A stretch of DNA of 64,000 nucleotides, the filler included, from Stramenopiles sp. TOSAG23-3 (taxonomy: Eukaryota): NCBI GenBank assembly GCA_900128585.1. It is 8 parts of 8 records of this genome, joined end to end, with 100 filler letters (N's around TTAATTAATTAA, not from the genome) between each part and the next. Parts side by side here need not be neighbours in the genome. Positions count along the whole stretch, not along the records: positions 48,326 to 56,255 come from LT643086.1; 7 more parts are not named here. One strand, 5' to 3'. A program made the position numbers and the translations under genes. Shown here piece after piece: positions 4,103-56,355 of the stretch. Positions within the stretch are counted from its first letter, which is position 1; each line of letters starts with the position of its first letter. The notes under the pieces were generated by a model that was not told the origin of the DNA, made no database searches, and was given only the letters and a program-made list of their open reading frames with translations.

Positions 4103-4321
4103 GACGACAACAATCTCTCTTCTTCTTCTATCTCTCCTTTATTTTTTTTTTTTTTTAGGCGATTTGATTTGTATGTATATAAAAAAATAGAAATACACAA
4201 ATGTTCTTTTCTATATATGATTATGTCTATCAATCCTACTGAAAAAAGGAAATTATTTCTTTGGGTGAGAAATTAGATTTTGACTGCGTAGAAAAGGAAA
4301 TTCTTCTATACTAAGCGCACC

Positions 4322-7977: not shown

Positions 7978-8077
7978 NNNNNNNNNNNNNNNNNNNNNNN
8001 NNNNNNNNNNNNNNNNNNNNNTTAATTAATTAANNNNNNNNNNNNNNNNNNNNNNNNNNNNNNNNNNNNNNNNNNNN
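7978..8077. other. Artificial contig-joining linker (44N-TTAATTAATTAA-44N)
   Basis: Six-frame stop spacer; identical copies at 16035, 24088, 32140, 40187, 48226 and 56256. Confidence 0.98.
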
Positions 8078-16034: not shown

Positions 16035-16134
16035 NNNNNNNNNNNNNNNNNNNNNNNNNNNNNNNNNNNNNNNNNNNNTTAATTAATTAANNNNNNNNNN
16101 NNNNNNNNNNNNNNNNNNNNNNNNNNNNNNNNNN
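16035..16134. other. Artificial contig-joining linker
   Basis: 44N-TTAATTAATTAA-44N. Confidence 0.98.
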
Positions 16135-17126: not shown

Positions 17127-18685
17127 CGAGCGGAAAGGTCGTGCGGGGGTACCGTCGTGGTTGCATTGTTTTTTGACGTTTGTATATATATGTATTTTAT
17201 GAGCTCGGGGGGGACAACGATCTCGGTTCACTTCAAACGGGGTCGTCGTGGACACGTCTGGCGCAGTATTTAGCTCGCAAGAAATTCTTGAGGAAAAGAT
17301 CAAGATCGAAAAGTAAACGTTTTTGCTTTACAAAAGTTGTAAATTGATACCCTTAGTTGTAGATTGATTCTTGTTATTTCAGCTCTTCATTGTTTGTTGT
17401 ATTGCTTTTCCATAGTATTATTATTCTTCTACCAGGGAATTAGGTACCGGTACACCGGTACCGTACCGTAGTACGTGAATGAGAATTAGATGAAAGTGAT
17501 GTACTTGGTACGTACGGTAGTATTAATAGTAATAGAAGAAAAATATAATGGCCAAACCGACCACGACTTGAGCCTTGAGCCTTGAGCCAAGCCAAGCTGC
17601 CTCAGTCAAGTACCAGTAATGACTGGTAGGTAGACTACGAGGAGACTAACTCTGTTCAAGATCCAAGAATCAAATTAAATAGTCCATCCTGTCATCCTGT
17701 TATGTTATGTTAGACTTGCTTTAAATTATTTAACCATTTAGATAAACAATGATTGCTTCGTGAATACAATATATTAAATATCATACGTCCTCGTAGTCGT
17801 CCTCGTTGTTTTTTTTTTATTTTATTATTTTTTTTGTTCTTTTGTTCTTTCTTTCTTCTTTTAATTTATTTATTATACAAGTATATTATGCGTTTTAGTC
17901 GTCCATATGCTATTTGAAGGCGGTTTCAGAGAATAAAATGTCAGGATATCCTATTTAATTTAGTCTATATAAGTACAGTATAATAAATAATATTATTAAA
18001 TAAACTTTGCTGATCCTACTTTGCTGATCCTAGTCTAGGCTAGGTTTCCAGTTTATTTTTTTGTTTATTTATTCGTTTATTTATTTTCTTGTGCTAGTCT
18101 AGTCTATTCAATGTTAGTAAATAAAAAGCAAAAAATGAACTGTAACTATATATGTTCTTTTATACTTATAATAATTATTATATATACTATTGAATATGAA
18201 ATACCTATTTAATACAACAATACGTATCTTCCATCTCCACTTCATTAGTTCTCTCGGACTTCTTGTATATTAAGGATAATATATAAATACATTATATATT
18301 ATTTACATTTTATTCCTATTTGTTATATATATATCTTTATACTGTTAATACTTAATAAAGAAAAAAAATAAGTTACCTCTTATAACGCAATTTTATTAAC
18401 TAAAAAAAACTCGAAAAGAAAAAGAGAAGAAGCAAAAGATGATGAAGAACACGCAAGAAAGGAAGGAACGGAACAATGGAATGAACGATTTCGATGGATT
18501 ACTTAGATAGATATATACTTACATTTTACAACTTATTTGACAGCTAAGTCATTCTTACAGTGAAAGAGTTTAACATTGCATAGATACATATATATTAAGA
18601 ATTGCAAGGTATACAGTTGTATTATTGCATAGCAAGCTTTTGTTTGTGGAACAGTCAGTACTTTTTATTTTGTTAAAACTCGAGT

Positions 18686-24087: not shown

Positions 24088-24187
24088 NNNNNNNNNNNNN
24101 NNNNNNNNNNNNNNNNNNNNNNNNNNNNNNNTTAATTAATTAANNNNNNNNNNNNNNNNNNNNNNNNNNNNNNNNNNNNNNNNNNNN
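24088..24187. other. Artificial contig-joining linker
   Basis: 44N-TTAATTAATTAA-44N. Confidence 0.98.
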
Positions 24188-32139: not shown

Positions 32140-32239
32140 NNNNNNNNNNNNNNNNNNNNNNNNNNNNNNNNNNNNNNNNNNNNTTAATTAATTAANNNNN
32201 NNNNNNNNNNNNNNNNNNNNNNNNNNNNNNNNNNNNNNN
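32140..32239. other. Artificial contig-joining linker
   Basis: 44N-TTAATTAATTAA-44N. Confidence 0.98.
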
Positions 32240-32962: not shown

Positions 32963-33389
32963 AATAAAAATAAAAAAGAACGACTGAAGGAGATGACTCC
33001 ATACTTATTTGTATTTTGTATATAAAGTAAGAGACAAATATCCCTATGAAATGATGGTTCGATTGATGATGGATGATTTTATCCAACCTATACGTATAAT
33101 AAATAATATATAAAAAATCGAATTCAAACCATTTCAAGAAATAATCAATATTTTATATGAGCTTTTGGCTTCATCGTACGTACCCTTGGTAATACCGTGG
33201 GTATTATACCAGGTACCTGTACCAAAAAAAAACAGCGAAGAAAGAAGAAGAGAGAAAAGAAGAAGAAGAGGAGAGCGCTCTTTTTTGTTTTGTTTTTTGG
33301 GTGGTGAANNNNNNNNNNNNNNNNNNNNNNNNNNNNNNNNNNNNNCGACGGTACACGGTTATTAATACGGACAGGTAGTATTTTACTTT

Positions 33390-40186: not shown

Positions 40187-40286
40187 NNNNNNNNNNNNNN
40201 NNNNNNNNNNNNNNNNNNNNNNNNNNNNNNTTAATTAATTAANNNNNNNNNNNNNNNNNNNNNNNNNNNNNNNNNNNNNNNNNNNN
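40187..40286. other. Artificial contig-joining linker
   Basis: 44N-TTAATTAATTAA-44N. Confidence 0.98.
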
Positions 40287-48225: not shown

Positions 48226-48325
48226 NNNNNNNNNNNNNNNNNNNNNNNNNNNNNNNNNNNNNNNNNNNNTTAATTAATTAANNNNNNNNNNNNNNNNNNN
48301 NNNNNNNNNNNNNNNNNNNNNNNNN
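48226..48325. other. Artificial contig-joining linker
   Basis: 44N-TTAATTAATTAA-44N. Confidence 0.98.
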
Positions 48326-48326
48326 G

Positions 48327-51300
48327 CTACGATGGGGCAAACCAGAACCGTGGCAAATGACCAGTCTACGGTTGGCACAAGAGAAAATCCTGTTGGCGCA
48401 TCGTCCCGGTTTTGGTAAGACCATTAATGCGTTGTTACTGGCCGAGAAAATGCGTAGACTATCGGGGAGAAAAGTTCTGCTGTTGGCCCCCAATAGAGAC
48501 TTGTTGTCGCAATGGGTAATTGAGTTGCATAAGTTGGGATTTGACAAACGTGATTACATTTGGTCTACGTACAACCATTTTCGGGATTCGCAAACCAAAT
48601 GGCTCTATCCAGAGTACAAGGATTTAAACGATTTTGAGAAGACGTACAAAGATTGGATTAAGAAAACAAAAGGAACGAAGGTTGGAGAATATCCGAAACA
48701 TAATCTTGACACTCCAATTAGAAATTTCCCGAAAGATACAGATAAAGATGTGAGTAACAAAATACGCCATTGTATGGTATGTGGAAGAGAAATAAAATAT
48801 TCTGAATTCGGTGCCGATGGAAAAGAGGACTTAGGTAAAGTGCTAAAGGGTATCGTCCACGAATTTGACCTTGGTAACAATACTATCCGAGTGGACCACC
48901 ATTGGCATCTTGTTGAAGACAAACTGTTTCTTGCGTGTGGTTGCAATGACATAGATGCACAGTTTTTGTGTGGGTTCAGTTTAAAGAAAGAGTCTACAAT
49001 ATCAGAATATCGGAAAATAGGGTATATGAAATGGAAAGCCTTCTACTTCAAGTTGAAACGGATCGCACAAGAGAAAGGTAAAGAGACAAAAGATAAAACA
49101 GTAAGCGAATTAAAGAAAGCCATTTGGGAAGGTGGAGTAACGCACGAGTACACGGTCCCCTATTATACGGACAGGAAAGGGAATTTTTACCATATGTATC
49201 GAGCACCGAAAGACTGTATCATTGTTTGCGACGAAATCCATAAATTTGTTCGTGATTCTAAGTCACTGATGTCCCAAGCGCTGTGGAAATACATTGCACA
49301 AAGCAAATATACCATTCTGTTGTCGGCCACTCCCATTGAATCGTCAAACGAAACAAAACAATTGTTTATCTTATCGGAGCTGTTAAAAGATAATTCGATG
49401 TACCCGTACAAGTCAGTGACTATCGATGGAAGCTTCAACGGTCTATCGCTTCCACCATGGCATCCATTGTATCCAAAGGAAAACGACGAAGATATGTATG
49501 ACTTGGCAGCACGTATTCGCGGTAAATTTTCTCGACACAACACGGTTCAAGATATTGACGCCGCAATAAAGATTATTTTTGACAAAAAAGGCGATGAAGA
49601 CGATCGTTTCAAAATGAACTACAAAAAATTGTTGAATTTTTATATGGGTACAAAGGACGAGTTTTTGTCAACAATTCAAAAGAAGGGCTTGGCTAAATTT
49701 CTAAAAGACGCATTGAAAAATTTATTCGTGGTTCAAAATAAGAATGAGTTGAGGATTTTTCCAGATCTCATTCCGTACAATAATGGGTACATAAACGTGA
49801 CTTGTGATCTGAATCGTGCGATAATGAAAGAAAGAACCCCACAATATGAAATACGGTATCAAATCATAAAAGATAGCCAGAAACGATTCCGTCTTGAAAA
49901 AAAGGAACATACCATCACAGTCATTAAGGCAAACAATGGTCTGTATAGTGGAAACGAAATCATCAAACTAGAGCAATGGATTCTACAAAGAAAAGATGGT
50001 TTAATTAACATTCGTTTAAAACCGGACGAAGGCACAGTACCATTGGAGTCTGCTATTGTGACAAACTACACCGTATCCACGAACACCGAATATAAGGTTA
50101 TTGAGGATTCAATGCAAGGAATGATAGCCGGCGTAACACCAAAACCAAATATACAATGGCTCCATGTGTGTCCCACCGTTGAGGTTACGGCTACATCTCG
50201 AGATCGCTTAGAAAAATGGTACGATAATATACCATACATTCCAGACTTATTGGGTTCAAAAGTATTGGAAATGGTGTATACCATTGAAGAACAAGTAAGC
50301 AAATCCAAGAATGTGATGGTGTATCACGACAAGGTTGAGATGTTACGGATGCTACAACGTGCACTTACGATGCGGAAGCACAAATACGTGAACCAACATA
50401 TATGGGACGATTCGCAGATGAAAAATCATGCGAAGGAACAAGCTAGCAAACGGTATCGTAAGCTGGTATGGCAAAACGATGAAGATATCGATTACGTCCA
50501 GATACAAGAGGACGCATACGAGTATGGTACATCTGTGTCCACTGAATTAGATTACGAAGAACTCGAAGACGTGTATAAATTTTACAACAACATTCTTCCA
50601 CAAGTCTGTTACCCCATCTTTTTCAAAACGATGGAATCGGAGTTAAAAAAAAATGGAATCGAATTAAGTGAAGCTGTCAATACGTTTGCATACTATACTG
50701 AGTATGCTTGGGGGAAGAGTAACAAAGATACGATTGCTAAAGACAAAGAAGAATGCGATAAATACATACAAGCAGCAAAAACAATAGAAAGGATGCATAC
50801 GGGTAAAATTAACAAGGCGCGAAAGCAAGAAATCATCAAAAGTGCAAAGACATTTAAGACCTTTGACACGACGAAGGAATTTAAAAGAATAATTGCAACA
50901 GCGTGTGAGAACGCCTTCTCCGAATTAAGGAAGACTTCCAAGAACAAAACGCTTCAACAACAACTAGAAGACCTAAATTTGCAAATACCAGTGTTTTCTG
51001 AAGTAAATGGATTGACAAAAGCCCAAGAAATGATGGCTGATTATTACAAAGTAAGCCGTATGTCTATGTCGGCAGGCGGGACAGGAACCTTTCATAGTAC
51101 ACTAAAAAAAACAAGAGGCAAGACAAACTTTCTCCAAACTTATTTTTATCAATCCCCAAAAAACCCACCCTTGTTAAGGGTAGACAGACGGTTTGATATG
51201 CCATTTGATGATTTTAACTCCATTAAGTCGTTTATAAATGAAAAGCACAAGGCATTTTTTGTCAAGGTGCAGAATACGAAAAAACGTGAAACGAAAATGA

Positions 51301-53951
51301 CCATTCTCAACTATGAATATGAGTTGAAAGAAGACGATGATTTTAAAGATGCTAGTGACTGCAAGCAAGCATTTATCAACTGCTTCTATACACAGCAATA
51401 CATAAACAGCATGTTTGACGAGGAGACGAAAACGTTGTTGTTCAAGGATGGAGAGACCGGTCAAACCATAGAAAACATAGATGATCTGTTAACCGTATTG
51501 GAACACATCAAGAAAAATCCATATTCAAAGCAAAAGAAGGGGAAAGCTGTAGTACATTTGAACAGTAAAAAATTATTGCGAGACGATAAAACGTTTCCAC
51601 GGACAGACTACGTAGAAGCAGTGTACCCTAGACTGAGTGGGATGAGCGAGAAAAACCGTATGTACTTTGCGTTGATTGGTGGTAGAGTCAACTACGACAA
51701 TGCAAAAATTAAAGGATGGTTTGAAAACGGGTCCATCGATTGTTTATTGGTCTCGGACAAAGGTATTGAAGGCATAGACTACAAATCGTGTTCATCCTCC
51801 TTTATGATCTGCATTGACCCCGTGAAATCCGCGGGCAAACAAGACCAGTTCAATGGACGTACCGTACGACGAAACTCCCATAAAAACCTCCCAAACAGCA
51901 TGCGAATCGTAGAATACGTTTCATTTGTCGGAACAGGAGTTTCCAAACATCAAAAGGGTGCAAAAGAAGACGAATTGAAAGAGGCAAAGCAATACAAAGA
52001 ATTGATCAAAGCCATAAGAAATCCTACAGGGTTAACTTCAGAACAAGTCATACAGTATAAAATACGTGTAAACCAACTCGAGCGTCGAGATATAGCTGAA
52101 AAACAATTGAAGAAACTCGATAAAGAGGAAAACGATTGGCTCGTTGCCAATAGAGACGCTGTAGAAAAGACAATTTATACGAAGAAGGTCACCATCGTTG
52201 ACGAAGAGGGAGAAGAAGAAATGGAGGTACGAGGTTACGTTGACAATGCAGTGACTTTGTTTAATGACTTAAACATCGACTACAATGCATACAAAACAAT
52301 ACGTATTGATCAGCAGAAGATGATGGTAGTCGATGAGTCACTTGTTCAGTTTATACCCGATTCTAAATACCAAGTAGATGAACAGGCTGACGGGATAACG
52401 TTTGATACGATAGAAAACAACACCATCAAATTGTGGATTTTACCGAACAGCATGGAAGTCATGAGCGACGATGAGAAACAAGCGATGTTGTACAGACAAA
52501 AAAACAAATACAACAAATTGACTGATAAGGCGTCGAAGGAAGCGCTCTTAACATACAAATACTCCGTCGAAGACTTTACAAAAGATCCGGGAATCAATGA
52601 ATTGGAACGCCAGTTGGGATTTCCACAGTCGGGTTATAGAGAGACATTCAATCTCAATATAAAAAGACGAAGAAAAGTGCAGGATGAGGAGATACCGGAC
52701 GCCAAGAAATGGTCTACCTATTTCGACAACTACGTCAATATTTCGCATGTGCCGGTATACAACAACTATGCATTTACATCCTTAGGCGACGTGAATACCG
52801 AAGGTAAACACTATTTTTGTTACGCATGCGACCAAGATAGAAATATGGAGAACGGTAAATGTAAATTTTGTAATTTACCACTGAAGGAAGGGGATAAATA
52901 CCTGTACTACCATTTGGTGCAACCCGATGGATTTAAGCAAGCGACGAAAGAGTTACTCAAGACAACAAGTAATATGAAGAAACAAAAACTCTCCATTGCT
53001 AACCGCATTCAAAGGGACCGACTGGAGATGATGATGTCCTTGAATTCCATTGAACATCGGATGCAGTTGAATGGGGACCGACGATACAAATTAGAATACA
53101 CAGAGAAAGGCGAAAAACGTACCTACTATCACCGAGTCAACGATCCGCCAACTACGGTGTCTCCATCGCTTCTAGAAAATGATTGGGATAAGCTGATCGC
53201 GGATCCGGAACTGATCGATGATCGCGGATCAGAACCCCTAACCAAAGAGATTGATACGAAGCCGACCTATGTCTCTTTGGCAAGAGGGCAAAACACTCAA
53301 AACGTTAGTGAGGATATCACATCAATAGAAGAGAAGATCAATGAAGCAAAAAATCGATTGGAACTAGGAATGGACATCATGTGGTTTGATGACGTCGGTA
53401 GTGAATCAAATTTAACAAAAAAATGGCGGCGTGAAAAGATAATTGAGGAATGCGAAGTCCTAGAAGATAAAGTGATTAGGAAACGTAAGAATGGTGCTGA
53501 AATAGAAAAACTGGAAGTTGTCGAGTACTTGGACGATTGGAAAGAGTATGACAGGGGTACTTACTGGTTGATTACCACATCTTCAATTCCCAAAACGCAG
53601 AGTCAAATTATAAAAACGTTATGGCCAAAGCCAACGAATGCTCTAACACCAACCAACGTCAAAGAATTTAAACGAATAACGAGTGACTTTTGGTTCAACG
53701 GAACCGATACACTGAAAGTGCGCAATGAAAGCTACGACATTGAAATGGATTGGGTTTGGATGAATAAAGACGAGCGAATGGATATGAAGAGGCGGATAGG
53801 ACCGAGGGGTGTAGATATTGAAGGATTGTACAAGGAGTTAGAAGATACGAAGAAAGCAGAAATAAAAGCCGGTCTCACGGATCCGGATTACGAGGAGGTA
53901 GAGAACAGACCGGACGATCGGTACGGGGTAGAGATACAAGAAGAATATTAA
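48327..53951 (+). CDS. Giant SF2 helicase, poxvirus D6/D11 (VETF-s/NPH-I)-like, 5'-truncated, >1870 aa
   Basis: The frame is open to the contig start (PEPWQ Q-motif). Motif I LAHRPGFGKT, Ia LLAP....QW, II CDEIH, III LLSATP, IV NVMVY, V SDKGIEGIDY, VI QFNGRTVRRNSH. Confidence 0.85.
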   Translation, partial: LRWGKPEPWQMTSLRLAQEKILLAHRPGFGKTINALLLAEKMRRLSGRKVLLLAPNRDLLSQWVIELHKLGFDKRDYIWSTYNHFRDSQTKWLYPEYKDLNDFEKTYKDWIKKTKGTKVGEYPKHNLDTPIRNFPKDTDKDVSNKIRHCMVCGREIKYSEFGADGKEDLGKVLKGIVHEFDLGNNTIRVDHHWHLVEDKLFLACGCNDIDAQFLCGFSLKKESTISEYRKIGYMKWKAFYFKLKRIAQEKGKETKDKTVSELKKAIWEGGVTHEYTVPYYTDRKGNFYHMYRAPKDCIIVCDEIHKFVRDSKSLMSQALWKYIAQSKYTILLSATPIESSNETKQLFILSELLKDNSMYPYKSVTIDGSFNGLSLPPWHPLYPKENDEDMYDLAARIRGKFSRHNTVQDIDAAIKIIFDKKGDEDDRFKMNYKKLLNFYMGTKDEFLSTIQKKGLAKFLKDALKNLFVVQNKNELRIFPDLIPYNNGYINVTCDLNRAIMKERTPQYEIRYQIIKDSQKRFRLEKKEHTITVIKANNGLYSGNEIIKLEQWILQRKDGLINIRLKPDEGTVPLESAIVTNYTVSTNTEYKVIEDSMQGMIAGVTPKPNIQWLHVCPTVEVTATSRDRLEKWYDNIPYIPDLLGSKVLEMVYTIEEQVSKSKNVMVYHDKVEMLRMLQRALTMRKHKYVNQHIWDDSQMKNHAKEQASKRYRKLVWQNDEDIDYVQIQEDAYEYGTSVSTELDYEELEDVYKFYNNILPQVCYPIFFKTMESELKKNGIELSEAVNTFAYYTEYAWGKSNKDTIAKDKEECDKYIQAAKTIERMHTGKINKARKQEIIKSAKTFKTFDTTKEFKRIIATACENAFSELRKTSKNKTLQQQLEDLNLQIPVFSEVNGLTKAQEMMADYYKVSRMSMSAGGTGTFHSTLKKTRGKTNFLQTYFYQSPKNPPLLRVDRRFDMPFDDFNSIKSFINEKHKAFFVKVQNTKKRETKMTILNYEYELKEDDDFKDASDCKQAFINCFYTQQYINSMFDEETKTLLFKDGETGQTIENIDDLLTVLEHIKKNPYSKQKKGKAVVHLNSKKLLRDDKTFPRTDYVEAVYPRLSGMSEKNRMYFALIGGRVNYDNAKIKGWFENGSIDCLLVSDKGIEGIDYKSCSSSFMICIDPVKSAGKQDQFNGRTVRRNSHKNLPNSMRIVEYVSFVGTGVSKHQKGAKEDELKEAKQYKELIKAIRNPTGLTSEQVIQYKIRVNQLERRDIAEKQLKKLDKEENDWLVANRDAVEKTIYTKKVTIVDEEGEEEMEVRGYVDNAVTLFNDLNIDYNAYKTIRIDQQKMMVVDESLVQFIPDSKYQVDEQADGITFDTIENNTIKLWILPNSMEVMSDDEKQAMLYRQKNKYNKLTDKASKEALLTYKYSVEDFTKDPGINELERQLGFPQSGYRETFNLNIKRRRKVQDEEIPDAKKWSTYFDNYVNISHVPVYNNYAFTSLGDVNTEGKHYFCYACDQDRNMENGKCKFCNLPLKEGDKYLYYHLVQPDGFKQATKELLKTTSNMKKQKLSIANRIQRDRLEMMMSLNSIEHRMQLNGDRRYKLEYTEKGEKRTYYHRVNDPPTTVSPSLLENDWDKLIADPELIDDRGSEPLTKEIDTKPTYVSLARGQNTQNVSEDITSIEEKINEAKNRLELGMDIMWFDDVGSESNLTKKWRREKIIEECEVLEDKVIRKRKNGAEIEKLEVVEYLDDWKEYDRGTYWLITTSSIPKTQSQIIKTLWPKPTNALTPTNVKEFKRITSDFWFNGTDTLKVRNESYDIEMDWVWMNKDERMDMKRRIGPRGVDIEGLYKELEDTKKAEIKAGLTDPDYEEVENRPDDRYGVEIQEEY

Positions 53952-54301
53952 GCTATAGTTCTACATAAGGGGCAAGTATTATTTACACGAAACCAACGCT
54001 CTATACAATGTTGGTGAAAGGTATGGTTACAGAGTAAGGTTTGTTTAATATTGAAGTCCTCTTCGTGGCATATGGAGCAGAATTCCATATTCTGTATGCT
54101 GTGCGCTTCAATGGTCAACACCTTTCTGTTCTGTAGTTCAAGTATGTACAATGCTTTTGGTATAGTGAAACTGGGGTACCTTGAATTGATTCGATCTTGG
54201 ACGATGCTTTTGTACGCATGGTAGCTGTAATCATCCAGCCATTGTTGAAGCTCCTGTTTTACATCGTCGGTCTGTATATTGACCGGTATCCATATTTCCA
54301 T
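53948..54301 (-). CDS. Small RING-H2 finger protein (putative E3 ubiquitin ligase)
   Basis: CSICHEEDF...LLCNHTFHQHCIERWF..NNTCPLCR. Confidence 0.92.
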   Translation of the reverse strand: MEIWIPVNIQTDDVKQELQQWLDDYSYHAYKSIVQDRINSRYPSFTIPKALYILELQNRKVLTIEAHSIQNMEFCSICHEEDFNIKQTLLCNHTFHQHCIERWFRVNNTCPLCRTIA

Positions 54302-54327
54302 TTAATATACCATAATGAATATTTATA

Positions 54328-54741
54328 CTATTTTTTCATATCCATTTTAAAATTTTGGTATTTGCGCACCAAGAAATCCTCTTCTACATGGTACACCCAA
54401 CTGTTCAAAAACGGTCGTTCCAGCCAGACCACATCCACATACACTTTGTCCATTTGCTCGTTGCATTCGTCCCATTCTTTCGCTGCTTCTTCCGAACAAA
54501 AAGTAATGACCAAATATTTTACATCGTCGCCTTCCACGATGGCCTTTGCCACTCTCGAATACCCATAGTACATGTACAGGGATTTGTCGTCTTTGTACTT
54601 CTTACTGAGTGCATAAGCATACACTTCGTGTTTGAACCTGCTCATTGGGTTTCCCTCCTTCAGTTCTTCGCGTAAAACGTACGTATCGTCTTCCAATAGT
54701 CTGGAATATATGTAAAAGTCAGAGGATAAATAATTTCCCAT
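54328..54741 (-). CDS. ORFan, 137 aa, N-myristoylation motif (MGNYLS)
   Basis: Tightly packed ORF preceded by TAAATG and a -26 TATTTAA; MGxxxS start. Confidence 0.75.
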   Translation of the reverse strand: MGNYLSSDFYIYSRLLEDDTYVLREELKEGNPMSRFKHEVYAYALSKKYKDDKSLYMYYGYSRVAKAIVEGDDVKYLVITFCSEEAAKEWDECNEQMDKVYVDVVWLERPFLNSWVYHVEEDFLVRKYQNFKMDMKK

Positions 54742-55455
54742 TTATATCATTTCATTTGACTTAAATACCTTCTTCGCCGTGTTGCATCTTGTCTTTGCAT
54801 CTTTAATGTTTAAAGGCAATGGGTAATCCTCTGGCACGACTTTTGGTATGTACCATTCCTCCGTCTCGTTTTCTACACTGTAGTACACCATTGCGTTGAA
54901 TATAATACATGAACCAATCATGGATACAATCGAGGATGTATTCATACTACTTACGGACCACTCTAGTAGAGCAAACACATAATTGTATGCCATTCGATAG
55001 AGAAAATATTCTTTTATTTTCGTCTTGCTCTCCCACACCAGAATAGGTTCCTTCATTTTGTGATAGATAGCGAGGCACACCATTGCTAATAAAAATTGCA
55101 GGTATCCGGCAGTAGAGCAAAAGCACAATACGCATGTCAGATGAATGGATTCCGAAGTACAACGATTCCATTTGACCATTTTAAAATTGAGACACAACAA
55201 TAAAATCCATATGCCCCCAGCGTACTCGTTGCGATAGGCCATTGTAATCCATAATACCAAACGTTGTACGTGTAGCCATCGGTTGAGGTCAATCATGTTC
55301 ATTTCTAGGATAGGATAATGGTGAATGACTAGAGCATGGGTAACAATATGACCTAATAAGATAGTATACATGGAACCATGAAGAAGGTAATGAAGACAGA
55401 GAATACACCATGGTAATAAACTAATAGGGAAAAGAGACTGTAGTCTGAGATTCAT
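54742..55455 (-). CDS. ORFan multi-pass membrane protein, 237 aa
   Basis: Several hydrophobic segments; its stop TAA abuts the next ATG; shared promoter motif upstream. Confidence 0.7.
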   Translation of the reverse strand: MNLRLQSLFPISLLPWCILCLHYLLHGSMYTILLGHIVTHALVIHHYPILEMNMIDLNRWLHVQRLVLWITMAYRNEYAGGIWILLLCLNFKMVKWNRCTSESIHLTCVLCFCSTAGYLQFLLAMVCLAIYHKMKEPILVWESKTKIKEYFLYRMAYNYVFALLEWSVSSMNTSSIVSMIGSCIIFNAMVYYSVENETEEWYIPKVVPEDYPLPLNIKDAKTRCNTAKKVFKSNEMI

Positions 55456-55493
55456 TTAAACAATATGTATCTGTATTTATATAGATATAAGCA

Positions 55494-56093
55494 TTAATCA
55501 CAAATAACGGTGTGTGGTCCTGAAGGAAAGGCTGCAAACAATTCTTTCAAACTTTGTTTGTTTGGATTCAATTCAGAGACCAGCATTTTTTTCCCATCGA
55601 ACATGCGAATCTCGGCACTTTGGTCTCCATCCGCGTACGCGCGCAAACTCTTTATGTAACGCTCTTTGCCTTTCATAAGCTGCATGTCATTTCCTTGAAA
55701 TCCTACCAAATGTTTTAGGGTGGTTGCGTCCTTAATATTTTTCTCCTTTGCTTTGTTACCAACACACGAGTTCGTATGGGACTTACCGCAATCGTCACAG
55801 GCCTGTTCGTACTCATTTTCTACTTCTTCCTCTTCCAACAAATCGTCCATGTTCACATCCATGGGTTCCACATTAATCAATTTTCTCACCTTTCTCGGTT
55901 CCGGCGCCAACGAAAAGGACTGGACCAAAACATCGTTAGGACCAATTTCTATACGAGCCTTTTTAATGGATTCTTCTAGGGCGGAATTGGGAGCAATATC
56001 GGTTTGAAATTTTGCGTTGAACTCGGAAATGGTCATAAATTTCATTCCCGGGGCTCTTAGGTAGGTTACGTAACGATTCACTTCGTTGATCAT
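55494..56093 (-). CDS. ORFan, 199 aa, with CxxC...H..C motif; N-terminus weakly resembles the TFIIE-beta winged helix
   Basis: ATG ORF with shared promoter motif; CDDCGKSHTNSC; the similarity to TFIIE-beta is by eye only. Confidence 0.7.
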   Translation of the reverse strand: MINEVNRYVTYLRAPGMKFMTISEFNAKFQTDIAPNSALEESIKKARIEIGPNDVLVQSFSLAPEPRKVRKLINVEPMDVNMDDLLEEEEVENEYEQACDDCGKSHTNSCVGNKAKEKNIKDATTLKHLVGFQGNDMQLMKGKERYIKSLRAYADGDQSAEIRMFDGKKMLVSELNPNKQSLKELFAAFPSGPHTVICD

Positions 56094-56139
56094 TTATTGA
56101 GTCATTCTACCGTATATATACGCAAAAAGATTTATTTAA
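56094..56139. promoter_or_regulatory. 46-nt bidirectional promoter with central palindromic CGTATATATACG and TAAATG starts on both strands
   Basis: TATATATA at 56113-56120 lies 27 nt from the ATG on each strand (56093 and 56140). Confidence 0.75.
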
Positions 56140-56255
56140 ATGAGATCCGAGCGTATTCGTAGAGAACAATTTTCAGCCATAACCATGTTAGACGGTGACG
56201 ACACTGACCCATGCGAAGAAGCTTTGGAACCTTTAGAAGCATTGGAATTTACTCC
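56140..56255 (+). CDS. Partial ORF (MRSERIRREQFSAITMLDGDD...), truncated by contig end
   Basis: TAAATG start 27 nt after the TATA box; frame open to the linker. Confidence 0.55.
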
Positions 56256-56355
56256 NNNNNNNNNNNNNNNNNNNNNNNNNNNNNNNNNNNNNNNNNNNNT
56301 TAATTAATTAANNNNNNNNNNNNNNNNNNNNNNNNNNNNNNNNNNNNNNNNNNNN
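56256..56355. other. Artificial contig-joining linker
   Basis: 44N-TTAATTAATTAA-44N. Confidence 0.98.

Follow-up and report, generated by a model that had tools for sequence, protein, structure and literature searches.

A TATA box at a fixed distance from an initiator that overlaps the start codon precedes every gene start in view on a 7.9-kb viral contig, and the box recurs at most ORF starts of related viral loci. Together with one RNA contig that carries a run of non-templated A's at its 5' end, this arrangement points to a two-element promoter, from which initiation nucleated by a TATA-binding protein (TBP) would begin on AAA and slippage would produce a 5' poly(A) leader. We put the probability of this reading at about 60%.

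Results and discussion

Gene content of the viral contig

The window, the whole 64-kb stretch of DNA analysed here, is not one molecule. It consists of eight contigs of ~8 kb joined by N44-TTAATTAATTAA-N44 spacers, and its viral part is confined to the contig at 48326-56255 (LT643086.1, 7.9 kb), the features of which are listed in Table 1. As the ORF of the giant helicase is open to the contig edge, its start and promoter are out of view; homologues of this helicase have 2092-2420 aa, and in locus L007 (93% identical) the full ORF has 2226 aa, with TATAAAT ~27 nt before its AAAATG start. The heliorhodopsin fragment at the other end is identical in 38/38 residues to L007:17784-18872, which itself matches PF18761 at 5.1e-32.

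Table 1 Genes, promoters and the A-run RNA contig on the viral contig (positions count along the window)
Feature	Position	Strand	Details
Giant DEAD/ResIII helicase gene	48326..53951	+	5'-truncated; 1864 aa visible
RING-finger gene, 117 aa	53948..54301	-	zf-RING_2, 8.6e-12
RING promoter	54299..54327	-	TATAAATA 54320-54327; 15-nt spacer; TAAATG 54299-54304; first T 26 nt upstream of ATG 54299-54301
137-aa gene	54328..54741	-	no family match
137-aa gene promoter	54739..54767	-	TATTTAAG 54760-54767; TAAATG 54739-54744; box 26 nt upstream of ATG 54739-54741
237-aa gene	54742..55455	-	hydrophobic by eye; no family match
237-aa gene promoter	55453..55481	-	TATAAATA 55474-55481; 15-nt spacer; TAAATG 55453-55458; box 26 nt upstream of ATG 55453-55455
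199-aa gene	55494..56093	-	no family match
RNA contig X1 record 8	55590..56095	-	beyond 56095, 23 non-templated A's (mRNA sense)
Bidirectional promoter	56091..56142	.	CATTTA 56091-56096; 16 nt; TATATATA 56113-56120; 16 nt; TAAATG 56137-56142; ATG 56091-56093 (199-aa gene, -) and ATG 56140-56142 (divergent ORF, +)
Heliorhodopsin-domain gene	56140..56255	+	first 38 codons of 362 aa; cut by contig end

Promoter pattern at the visible gene starts

At all five visible starts on the contig (5/5), the ATG lies within TAAATG and is preceded at 26-27 nt by a TATA-like box, as the sequence-only reading had described. The 199-aa gene and the divergent heliorhodopsin-domain ORF have one palindromic box in common, TATATATA, which is 27 nt from each ATG within a 46-nt spacer (19+8+19). 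The box of the RING gene comes straight after the stop codon of the 137-aa gene, and that of the 137-aa gene lies inside the 237-aa CDS. In the 64-kb window, the pattern TATAWAN{16,19}AAATG has 8 matches versus 0.50 expected; in 100 dinucleotide shuffles, the highest count was 3. The 7.9-kb viral contig contains five of the 8, which represent four starts, one of them in two registers.

Stop-start overlap was considered as the cause of TAAATG and rejected: the TAA of the 137-aa gene's TAAATG is the stop codon of the upstream 237-aa gene, and an upstream stop codon supplies the TAA at this one of the five sites only.

Recurrence and conservation in relatives

The relatives compared comprise 34 metagenome/IMG-VR loci and two viral contigs of 134 and 179 kb. 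They were recovered by alignment-based scans of viral contigs; a single-protein scan gave none. Motif and spacing recur in these related contigs, with TATAWA at about -26/-27 in 61-85% of ORF starts. In four groups of relatives, TATAWA starts at -32 to -22 in 35/55, 61/99, 71/84 and 78/116 ORF starts, and the same survey found TAAATG as the ORF start in 24/55, 29/99, 19/84 and 33/116, respectively. The proposed rule for every gene thus stands on the window's contig and fails as a general statement: with TAAATG at 23-44% and NAAATG at about half of the relatives' ORFs, it is only local.

The two elements were further analysed along the two large contigs, G001 and G003, each of them a partial genome. 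TATWWAW starting at -29 to -24 precedes 69/114 and 96/154 of their starts, respectively, compared with 2/114 and 2/154 in the coding control. AAATG stands at 53/114 and 83/154 ORF starts (46-54%), while AA precedes 33/315 and 49/418 internal ATGs (~11%). Among 388 unique ORF starts in the related loci, 301 are preceded by a match scoring 8 bits or higher to a position weight matrix (PWM), A-(G/C)-T-A-T-(A/t)-(T/a)-A-W, which was derived from 327 sites; the coding control gave 27/388. The first T of the match lies at -26, -27 or -28 in 219 of the 301. A occupies -2 in 77% and -1 in 70% of the 388 starts. TATA box and AAATG occur together in the relatives' starts (both, 180; TATA only, 71; AAATG only, 50; neither, 87), and AAA most often lies 24 or 25 nt from the first T of the box (125 and 121 of 315 starts, respectively).

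The share of relatives' starts without a box ranges from 22% (87/388, PWM at 8 bits or more) to ~38% (TATWWAW, G001 and G003). Of the 268 G001/G003 starts, 92 have no well-placed box; searched for another promoter word, they yielded only TATA-like words at other distances, and many of these box-less "starts" are probably not true starts.

Conservation of the bidirectional promoter follows the same elements. In 10/10 related loci, with helicase identities to the window's protein of 27% to 93% (best segment), CATTT, TATATATA and AAATG of the spacer between the 199-aa and heliorhodopsin genes are invariant, and the bases of the left spacer diverge. Anchoring on the box for more distant ATGs was blurred by the two registers of TATATATA, and one gene family was clean: in its five loci, TAAAT departs by no more than 1-3 nt from the usual box offset and the ATG lies 4 nt beyond TAAAT.

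RNA evidence for the start site

The RNA data are assembled metatranscriptome contigs from four runs (X1-X4), and assembled contigs cannot show an RNA start. One of them, X1 record 8 (529 nt, depth 29.4, 0 mismatches), continues after 56095 with 23 T's on the + strand. The resulting A-run abuts the AAA in the TAAATG of the 199-aa gene and replaces the T of that hexamer (break at -3/-2), which suggests a poxvirus-like 5' poly(A) leader as far as one contig from one run goes. A jump of the reverse transcriptase from an AAAUG 5' end onto the poly(A) tail of another mRNA could mimic such a leader; even then, the 5' end would still be at AAA. In related genomic loci, no A-run of at least 9 precedes a long ORF, and all 7 such runs precede ORFs of at most 21 aa. 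The sole RNA 5' end seen is on the initiator rather than far upstream, and the earlier proposal of leaderless or 5'-poly(A)-leader mRNAs gains support from the 23 A's on this contig.

The A-run was present in one of the four runs. In the other three, contigs of the 199-aa gene end at 56081, 56068 and 56084, 9-25 nt before the ATG, with no loose end. The spacer at 56096-56139 is covered by none among the 31 of 45 RNA contig pieces listed. Across the four runs, the 199-aa gene has the highest contig depths among the window genes. The 137-aa gene has RNA contigs in three of the four, which end 4-24 nt short of its ATG. The 237-aa gene is nearly without RNA in all four runs (bins 54951-55480 at depth 0 to 0.23), and its neighbours are at depths 5-29, indicating that the signal is RNA rather than DNA. 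The near absence of RNA contrasts with the perfect promoter of this gene.

RING-gene contigs in two runs reach 54336 and 54337, which is 35-36 nt upstream of the ATG and past the TATA box. We take this extension either for the 3' UTR belonging to the 137-aa gene or for a break in the assembly where strains vary, as L005 does, although transcription may also begin upstream here. The contigs that end just before the 137-aa, 199-aa and heliorhodopsin ATGs, and the uncovered stretches of the contig, are weak hints at most.

Transcription factors and viral affiliation

The contig derives from an uncultured large DNA virus of marine waters, most probably a mirusvirus of the type that retains its own replication and transcription genes. 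The available part of PMC12768974 gives TBP, heliorhodopsin, a C3HC4 RING protein and a Snf2-type ATPase as the core accessory set of mirusviruses. This set was recovered here as RING and helicase in the window, heliorhodopsin, TBP in G001 and an SNF2+RING protein in G003. According to PMC10132985, TBP is present in 59% of mirusvirus genomes versus 0% of Nucleocytoviricota, and heliorhodopsin in 64% versus 5%; there and in PMC12768974, TBP counts among the core genes of mirusviruses and is missing from Nucleocytoviricota. The relatives also have NCLDV-like informational genes, as in the intron-poor order, namely Rpb1 (G001), PolB (G003) and, for nucleotide synthesis, RNR small subunit and thymidylate synthase (L007 and L006). 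Heliorhodopsin, RING and the giant helicase, the TBP, Rpb1 and PolB of relatives and the lack of an NCLDV capsid hit thus suggest a mirusvirus with its own RNA polymerase.

The sequence-only reading had proposed a search for TBP and TFIIB homologues, which succeeded for the former in one relative. G001 encodes a TBP of 229 aa with two repeats (86.5 and 71.6 bits) that matches yeast TBP at 3.9e-49, and its gene is itself behind a TATAWA-N-AAATG promoter. TFIIB (PF00382) was not found in the three partial relatives G001-G003 (397 kb, estimated 26-50% complete), nor was TBP in partial G002 and G003, and the 7.9 kb sequenced of the window's own virus show no TBP gene. VLTF3 (PF04947) and a capping enzyme were likewise not found in partial G001-G003. 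The NCLDV capsid (PF04451) was not found in them either, and control genomes were equally silent; the herpes terminase (PF02499) and protease (PF00716) gave no hit in the relatives, with controls silent too. In a search for a virion module among the relatives' large ORFs, Pfam on seven left four without a family, and the Atlas gave no usable match. The family-less large ORFs of G001 and G003, two of these four capsid candidates, are unrelated to each other.

Proposed mechanism and alternatives

In the proposed mechanism, the core promoter would consist of a TATA box, (A)(G/C)TATAWAW, with its first T 26-27 nt before the ATG, and an initiator, (T/A)AAAT, 15-16 nt downstream of the box, whose last A is the A of the start codon. 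TBP, which is virus-encoded in relatives, would nucleate initiation. The polymerase, probably a viral multisubunit RNAP, would start on AAA, and slippage on the three template T's would add 23 or more A's that the DNA does not encode, forming a 5' poly(A) leader that abuts the AUG and may have a role in translation. The palindromic TATATATA, 27 nt from two divergent ATGs, may serve both genes. A wider form of this mechanism is offered tentatively and may well prove wrong: in mirusviruses with their own polymerase, most genes might be expressed by a hybrid system, in which a cellular-type TBP on a canonical TATA box places a viral RNAP that reiterates on TAAAT at the start codon, giving mRNAs that are 5' polyadenylated, perhaps uncapped, and translated independently of a cap.

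The same TATA box and initiator might instead direct a start on AAA without slippage, so that mRNAs would be leaderless or have a leader of 1-2 nt and the A-run would be an artefact of cDNA synthesis or assembly. The restriction of the A-run to one of four runs and the lack of a loose end at the 199-aa gene in the others would fit this, and a cDNA ending in ...CATTT might anneal to any poly(A) tail and template-switch. We nevertheless regard it as unlikely, because the A-run contig is deep and free of mismatches and its junction is exactly where the poxvirus rule predicts it. Leaderless translation is, moreover, unusual in the eukaryotic cytoplasm. The selected element is also three A's, which form the slippage tract in poxviruses and in pGKL plasmids according to the available parts of PMC12722222 and PMC6831550. 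It is highly improbable that AAATG is a favourable translation context only, with transcription starting between box and ATG or upstream of the box and short templated leaders resulting. In AT-rich eukaryotes, start codons are commonly preceded by A-rich bases, and the RING-gene contigs do extend beyond the box in two runs. A translation context, however, needs no fixed distance to a box, yet the offset of AAA peaks sharply; TAAAT stays near the box distance in the gene family whose ATG is 4 nt further on, and the sole mapped 5' end breaks at -3/-2.

It is also possible, but quite improbable in our view, that TBP does not bind the octamer, which would then be an A/T core element peculiar to the virus and recognised by viral factors, like the poxvirus core or the ASFV late motif, with TBP otherwise employed or kept for genes of the host polymerase. 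The box lies nearer to the start than it does in canonical TBP-TFIIB complexes, TFIIB was not found in the 397 kb of relatives, and the ASFV authors, in the part of PMC7163114 available, take unusual spacing as the mark of a non-canonical complex. Against this, the consensus is the textbook TATAWAW and not merely AT-rich, and the TBP of G001 is close to that of yeast. TBP binds near-symmetrically, which fits a palindromic box used in two directions. The status of TBP as core in mirusviruses and absent from Nucleocytoviricota, cited above, likewise favours a TBP-bound box.

Mirusviruses, which were recognised as a phylum only recently, are abundant viruses of plankton. No description of a mirusvirus promoter was found in the literature, and the word "promoter" is absent from the available parts of the mirusvirus papers checked, including PMC10132985 and PMC12768974. 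A strict TATA-N(15-16)-TAAATG rule would offer a practical means of locating true starts and nested genes and of spotting viral contigs in bins; it would explain TBP as a core gene of the phylum and predicts poxvirus-like 5' poly(A) leaders on its messages. Such leaders, if confirmed, would link the expression strategy of a herpes-related capsid lineage to those of poxviruses and yeast killer plasmids, and would suggest how mirusviruses keep translating during host shut-off. If the hybrid system is real, a poxvirus/yeast-plasmid strategy would operate genome-wide in another viral realm, and reiterative poly(A) initiation would have long belonged to the NCLDV-type transcription module and would not be special to poxviruses.

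Comparison with known systems

One of the closest likenesses is to poxvirus post-replicative promoters. In vaccinia, as described in the available part of PMC12722222, a TAAAT initiator overlaps the ATG with an 8-nt A/T element at a fixed spacer upstream, as here, and post-replicative mRNAs have non-templated poly(A) leaders of ~35 nt that are ascribed to a sliding of RNAP on the initiator. Here, 15-16 nt separate the two elements, compared with ~11 nt (intermediate) and 6 nt (late) in the same account of vaccinia. As in poxviruses, an A-run absent from the DNA is joined at AAA, here on one RNA contig. Unlike in poxviruses, a canonical TATA box serves as the upstream element, and the rule seems to span most genes and not a single temporal class. 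The virus itself is no poxvirus; the NCLDV capsid and VLTF3 were not found in the partial relatives.

With Pol II and archaeal TBP/TATA promoters, the system shares the TATAWAW consensus, a fixed start distance, a eukaryote-type TBP (in a relative's genome) and a symmetric box for two directions. The first T of Pol II TATA boxes lies at -31/-30, whereas it is 24-27 nt from the presumed start AAA here, a distance that is fixed but shorter. Further differences from canonical TATA promoters are the fusion of the initiator AAA(TG) to the start codon, the failure to find TFIIB in partial G001-G003 and the probably viral polymerase.

The yeast cytoplasmic linear plasmids pGKL1/2 have mRNAs with a poly(A) leader from slippage, as stated in the available part of PMC6831550 and as proposed here; however, their conserved upstream sequence is different and not TATA, their RNAP is non-canonical with two subunits, and they have no TBP. 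ASFV is similar according to the available part of PMC7163114: its own RNAP works with factors resembling TBP and TFIIB, the motif upstream is AT-rich, 5' UTRs are short, and slippage occurs on initiation. It differs in adding AU/AUAU rather than poly(A), and its motif is 4-12 nt from the start, with a weak resemblance to TATA.

The viral contig and its relatives

The eight contigs of ~8 kb that compose the window are separated by artificial spacers and do not form one molecule. The ten long ORFs checked came from the non-viral contigs (six of seven), and seven of these ORFs matched eukaryotic cell-type families, those found being FTO dioxygenase, kinesin, ABC transporter, filamin/PH, inositol-phosphatase-like with C2, and aminotransferase. 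The viral contig (48326-56255) is therefore a passenger in, or binned with, a protist-like assembly, which hints at a possible host. Its helicase had 35 matches, all metagenomic, the three closest sharing 59-60% identity across 100% of the query; since these three measure 2092-2420 aa, the helicase in the window is truly 5'-truncated.

Alignment-based scans yielded 4 IMG/VR loci and 35 metagenome loci. By best segment, identity is 93% for L007 and ~60% for L005 and L006. Neighbouring genes in L007 and L006 encode ubiquitin hydrolase, ribonucleotide reductase small subunit, LicD, thymidylate synthase and heliorhodopsin. A divergent pair, the 199-aa gene and the heliorhodopsin gene, lies downstream of the giant helicase gene and is present in 10 related loci aligned, from 39 fetched; its heliorhodopsin bears a 135-aa N-terminal extension.

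Three IMG/VR viral records behind related loci, G001 (134 kb), G002 (84 kb) and G003 (179 kb), are estimated to be 26-50% complete. A search of these records found a two-repeat TBP (3.9e-49 to yeast TBP), as well as Rpb1, family B DNA polymerase and a SNF2+RING protein. No NCLDV capsid was found in these partial records, nor was an HK97 capsid module among the relatives. In the text consulted of PMC10132985, TBP is reported from 59% of mirusvirus genomes versus 0% of Nucleocytoviricota, and heliorhodopsin from 64% versus 5%. The consulted part of PMC12768974 counts TBP, heliorhodopsin, C3HC4 RING and Snf2 ATPases among the core mirusvirus functions, with RNAP, PolB and nucleotide-synthesis genes kept by only one major order. 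By gene content alone, the virus is most probably a mirusvirus of the kind that keeps RNAP, PolB and nucleotide-synthesis genes. In G003, a C3HC4 RING lies between the lobes of a SNF2-type helicase, comparable to Rad5/HLTF-like remodellers. A long G001 ORF without any Pfam family has repeated Cys-rich segments (...C..C..G...AGDDA.G..T.C...), a composition suggestive of a large repeat protein of secreted or surface type.

Features of the viral contig and of related loci
Feature	Location	Description
Spacers between contigs	7978-8077, 16035-16134, 24088-24187, 32140-32239, 40187-40286, 48226-48325, 56256-56355	N44-TTAATTAATTAA-N44
DEAD/ResIII helicase ORF	viral contig	1864 aa visible, open at contig edge
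RING gene	viral contig	117 aa; promoter TATAAATA-N15-TAAATG
137-aa gene	viral contig	no family match; promoter TATTTAAG-N15-TAAATG
237-aa gene	54742-55455	no family match; promoter TATAAATA-N15-TAAATG
199-aa gene	viral contig	no family match
Divergent heliorhodopsin gene, first 38 codons	from 56140 (+)	38 residues identical to start of 362-aa heliorhodopsin-domain protein of L007
Promoter of 199-aa and heliorhodopsin genes	viral contig	single palindromic TATATATA-N16-TAAATG each side; 46-nt spacer
Divergent gene pair	window 55494-56255; L007:17138-18872	199-aa gene / heliorhodopsin
Pattern matches in cellular contigs	4176-4203, 18306-18333, 33130-33157	TATAWAN{16,19}AAATG
Displaced-ATG family	L002:16532, L016:16556, L019:16642, L024:16556, L027:5150	ATG downstream of TAAAT
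SNF2-type helicase with RING (G003)	L055:8884-11988	1034 aa
Cys-rich repeat ORF (G001)	L046:9039-13607	1522 aa

A TATA box and TAAATG at all five visible starts

When the five visible starts were aligned, each displayed a TATA-like octamer, a spacer and TAAATG in this order, with 26, 26, 26, 27 and 27 nt from the first T to the A of ATG (RING, 137-aa, 237-aa, 199-aa and heliorhodopsin genes). This alignment confirmed the TATA distances and the TAAATG that the sequence-only reading had claimed for all five. The window contains the pattern TATAWAN{16,19}AAATG 8 times (0.50 expected), a count reached in 0 of 100 shuffles, and five of the eight matches sit in the 7.9-kb viral contig. The three matches in cellular contigs are probably due to chance in AT-rich spacers. 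The 137-aa promoter lies inside the 237-aa CDS, and the TAA of its TAAATG is the 237-aa stop codon; stop-start overlap as the cause of TAAATG accounts for this site only.

The spacer between the 199-aa and heliorhodopsin genes was footprinted in 10 loci; the best-segment identity of their helicases to that of the window ranges from 27% to 93%. All ten keep CATTT, TATATATA, an AAAA block and AAATG unchanged. The sequence of the left spacer drifts, and spacer length differs by no more than 2 nt. A palindromic TATATATA that lies 27 nt from each of the two ATGs and is kept in all ten lineages would fit one box serving two divergent genes.

Recurrence in related viruses

ORFs of 100 aa or more that did not overlap were collected from four groups of related loci, with the first ATG taken as the start. 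TATAWA began at -32 to -22 in 35/55, 61/99, 71/84 and 78/116 starts, with a peak at -26/-27, so that the recurrence and spacing peak sought on related contigs were both found. TAAATG was the commonest start context in the same groups (24/55, 29/99, 19/84 and 33/116). Across 388 unique upstream regions, only positions -26 to -21 (alternating T/A, TATAAA), -2 and -1 were informative, with A at -2 in 77% and at -1 in 70%; position -3 held T in 38% of regions and A in 36%. The refined PWM, A-(G/C)-T-A-T-(A/t)-(T/a)-A-W, scored at least 8 bits upstream of 301 of the 388 starts versus 27 of 388 coding windows of equal size, and the first T fell at -26, -27 or -28 in 219 of the 301. Box and AAATG occurred together at 180 starts, the box only at 71, AAATG only at 50 and neither at 87.

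All these loci surround the helicase, and many of the promoters are thus orthologous; the whole G001 and G003 contigs were therefore counted as well. The box was in place at 69/114 (G001) and 96/154 (G003) starts, with 2/114 and 2/154 in coding controls. AAATG was found at 53/114 and 83/154 ORF starts, and AA before 33/315 and 49/418 internal ATGs. TAAATG starts 26 ORFs on G001 and 45 on G003, and a TATAWA-N-AAATG site precedes the TBP gene of G001 itself. The grammar is lineage-wide, not universal. The rigidity proposed for every gene start thus holds for the window contig (5/5) and not for its relatives, the five TAAATG being a local maximum (p ~0.016 at the 44% rate of the closest relatives).

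Among 315 well-placed promoters, the AAA begins 24 nt from the box's first T in 125 and 25 nt from it in 121. One orthologous family of a related clade, in L002, L016, L019, L024 and L027, reads TATATATA-N15-TAAATAAC(G/C/T)ATG, with TAAAT within 1-3 nt of the usual box offset and the ATG 4 nt further (TAAATAACGATG). Here TAAAT appears to behave as an initiator would, though as a single evolutionary event this is an anecdote; a short templated stretch is predicted after any A-leader. Judged from these sequences, the AAA is part of the promoter, beyond its role at the start codon.

RNA evidence for a 5' poly(A) leader

Parts of the viral contig are contained in 17 public runs from 11 studies, 15 of them recorded as RNA. 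The runs are marine or seawater metatranscriptomes as assembled contigs, and four (X1-X4, four studies) were placed on the contig. The 199-aa gene had the highest depths of the window's genes (29, 10, 5.5 and 21.5), whereas the adjoining 237-aa gene was almost uncovered (0-0.23 in all four runs); given this contrast, the signal is RNA. The 237-aa gene, whose product looks hydrophobic, follows a textbook promoter yet has almost no RNA, with its neighbours covered; expression is not determined by the core promoter alone.

Record 8 of X1 (529 nt, depth 29.4, no mismatch) matches 55590-56095 and continues with 23 T's (+ strand). In mRNA sense it reads A(23)-AAAUGAUC..., the extra A's starting at the genomic T of TAAATG. 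The orientation excludes a 3' poly(A) tail as the source, and had oligo-dT primed on the three encoded A's, the copied sequence would be upstream, not downstream. The 23 extra and three encoded A's make 26 and, with five further bases, one 31-letter word; 31 letters is the word length of the index and presumably that of the assembler too, and the true leader may be longer. The sequence-only reading had proposed leaderless or poly(A)-leader mRNAs. The A-run at the AAA supports this interpretation, the leader itself coming from one assembled contig of one run, and contigs cannot establish an RNA start; elsewhere, 199-aa contigs end without loose ends at 56081 (X2), 56068 (X3) and 56084 (X4). The promoter arrangement is thus confirmed as an observation, its interpretation is supported, and the rigidity is local.

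None of the 31 listed contig pieces (of 45) covers the spacer 56096-56139. Among the pieces listed, 137-aa contigs end 24, 4 and 10 nt before the ATG and heliorhodopsin contigs have their first base at 56152, 12 nt past the ATG, or at 56200, which are at most weak hints. RING contigs extend past the TATA box to 54336 (X2) and 54337 (X3), as they would if RING transcription began upstream of the box, a tenable reading. With the end of the 137-aa gene only 26 nt upstream of the RING ATG, the 3' UTR of that gene necessarily overlaps this region, and the L005 sequence differs exactly where these contigs pass the box; we read them as read-through or an assembly break. At 53895-53954, where helicase and RING genes converge, X2 and X4 contigs (two studies) carry 17 other letters in place of 58 nt; strain variation in the overlapping 3' ends is the probable cause.

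Proposed mechanism and comparison with known systems

In the best reading, a TBP-type factor on the TATA box would set the site, the polymerase would begin on the AAA (the A of AUG being one of these three), and slippage would add the 5' poly(A) leader. Slippage would speak for the viral RNAP rather than for host Pol II. The start is 24-27 nt away from the first T, according to which A is used, whereas the Pol II rule places the first T at -31/-30; with a distance several bases shorter, the initiation complex is probably not canonical. The proposed search for TBP and TFIIB homologues returned TBP (G001), whereas TFIIB, along with VLTF3 and capping enzyme, was not found in the three partial relatives.

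In vaccinia, according to the text consulted, A/T cores of 8-11 nt lie ~11 nt (intermediate) or 6 nt (late) upstream of the initiator, RNAP sliding adds ~35-nt non-templated poly(A) leaders, and most late mRNAs lack a cap (PMC12722222). In the present virus, by contrast, a true TATA box forms the core, with a spacer of 15-16 nt. The parts consulted of two further sources describe the same poly(A)-leader behaviour for yeast pGKL plasmids (PMC6831550) and AU slippage for ASFV (PMC7163114). In the literature searched, no description of a mirusvirus promoter was found, nor any work combining slippage, leader and Nucleocytoviricota; the word "promoter" is absent from the queried text of the three main mirusvirus papers. 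The TATA box, the TAAAT initiator and reiterative initiation are each of a known kind; their combination, and the lineage in which it occurs, would be new.
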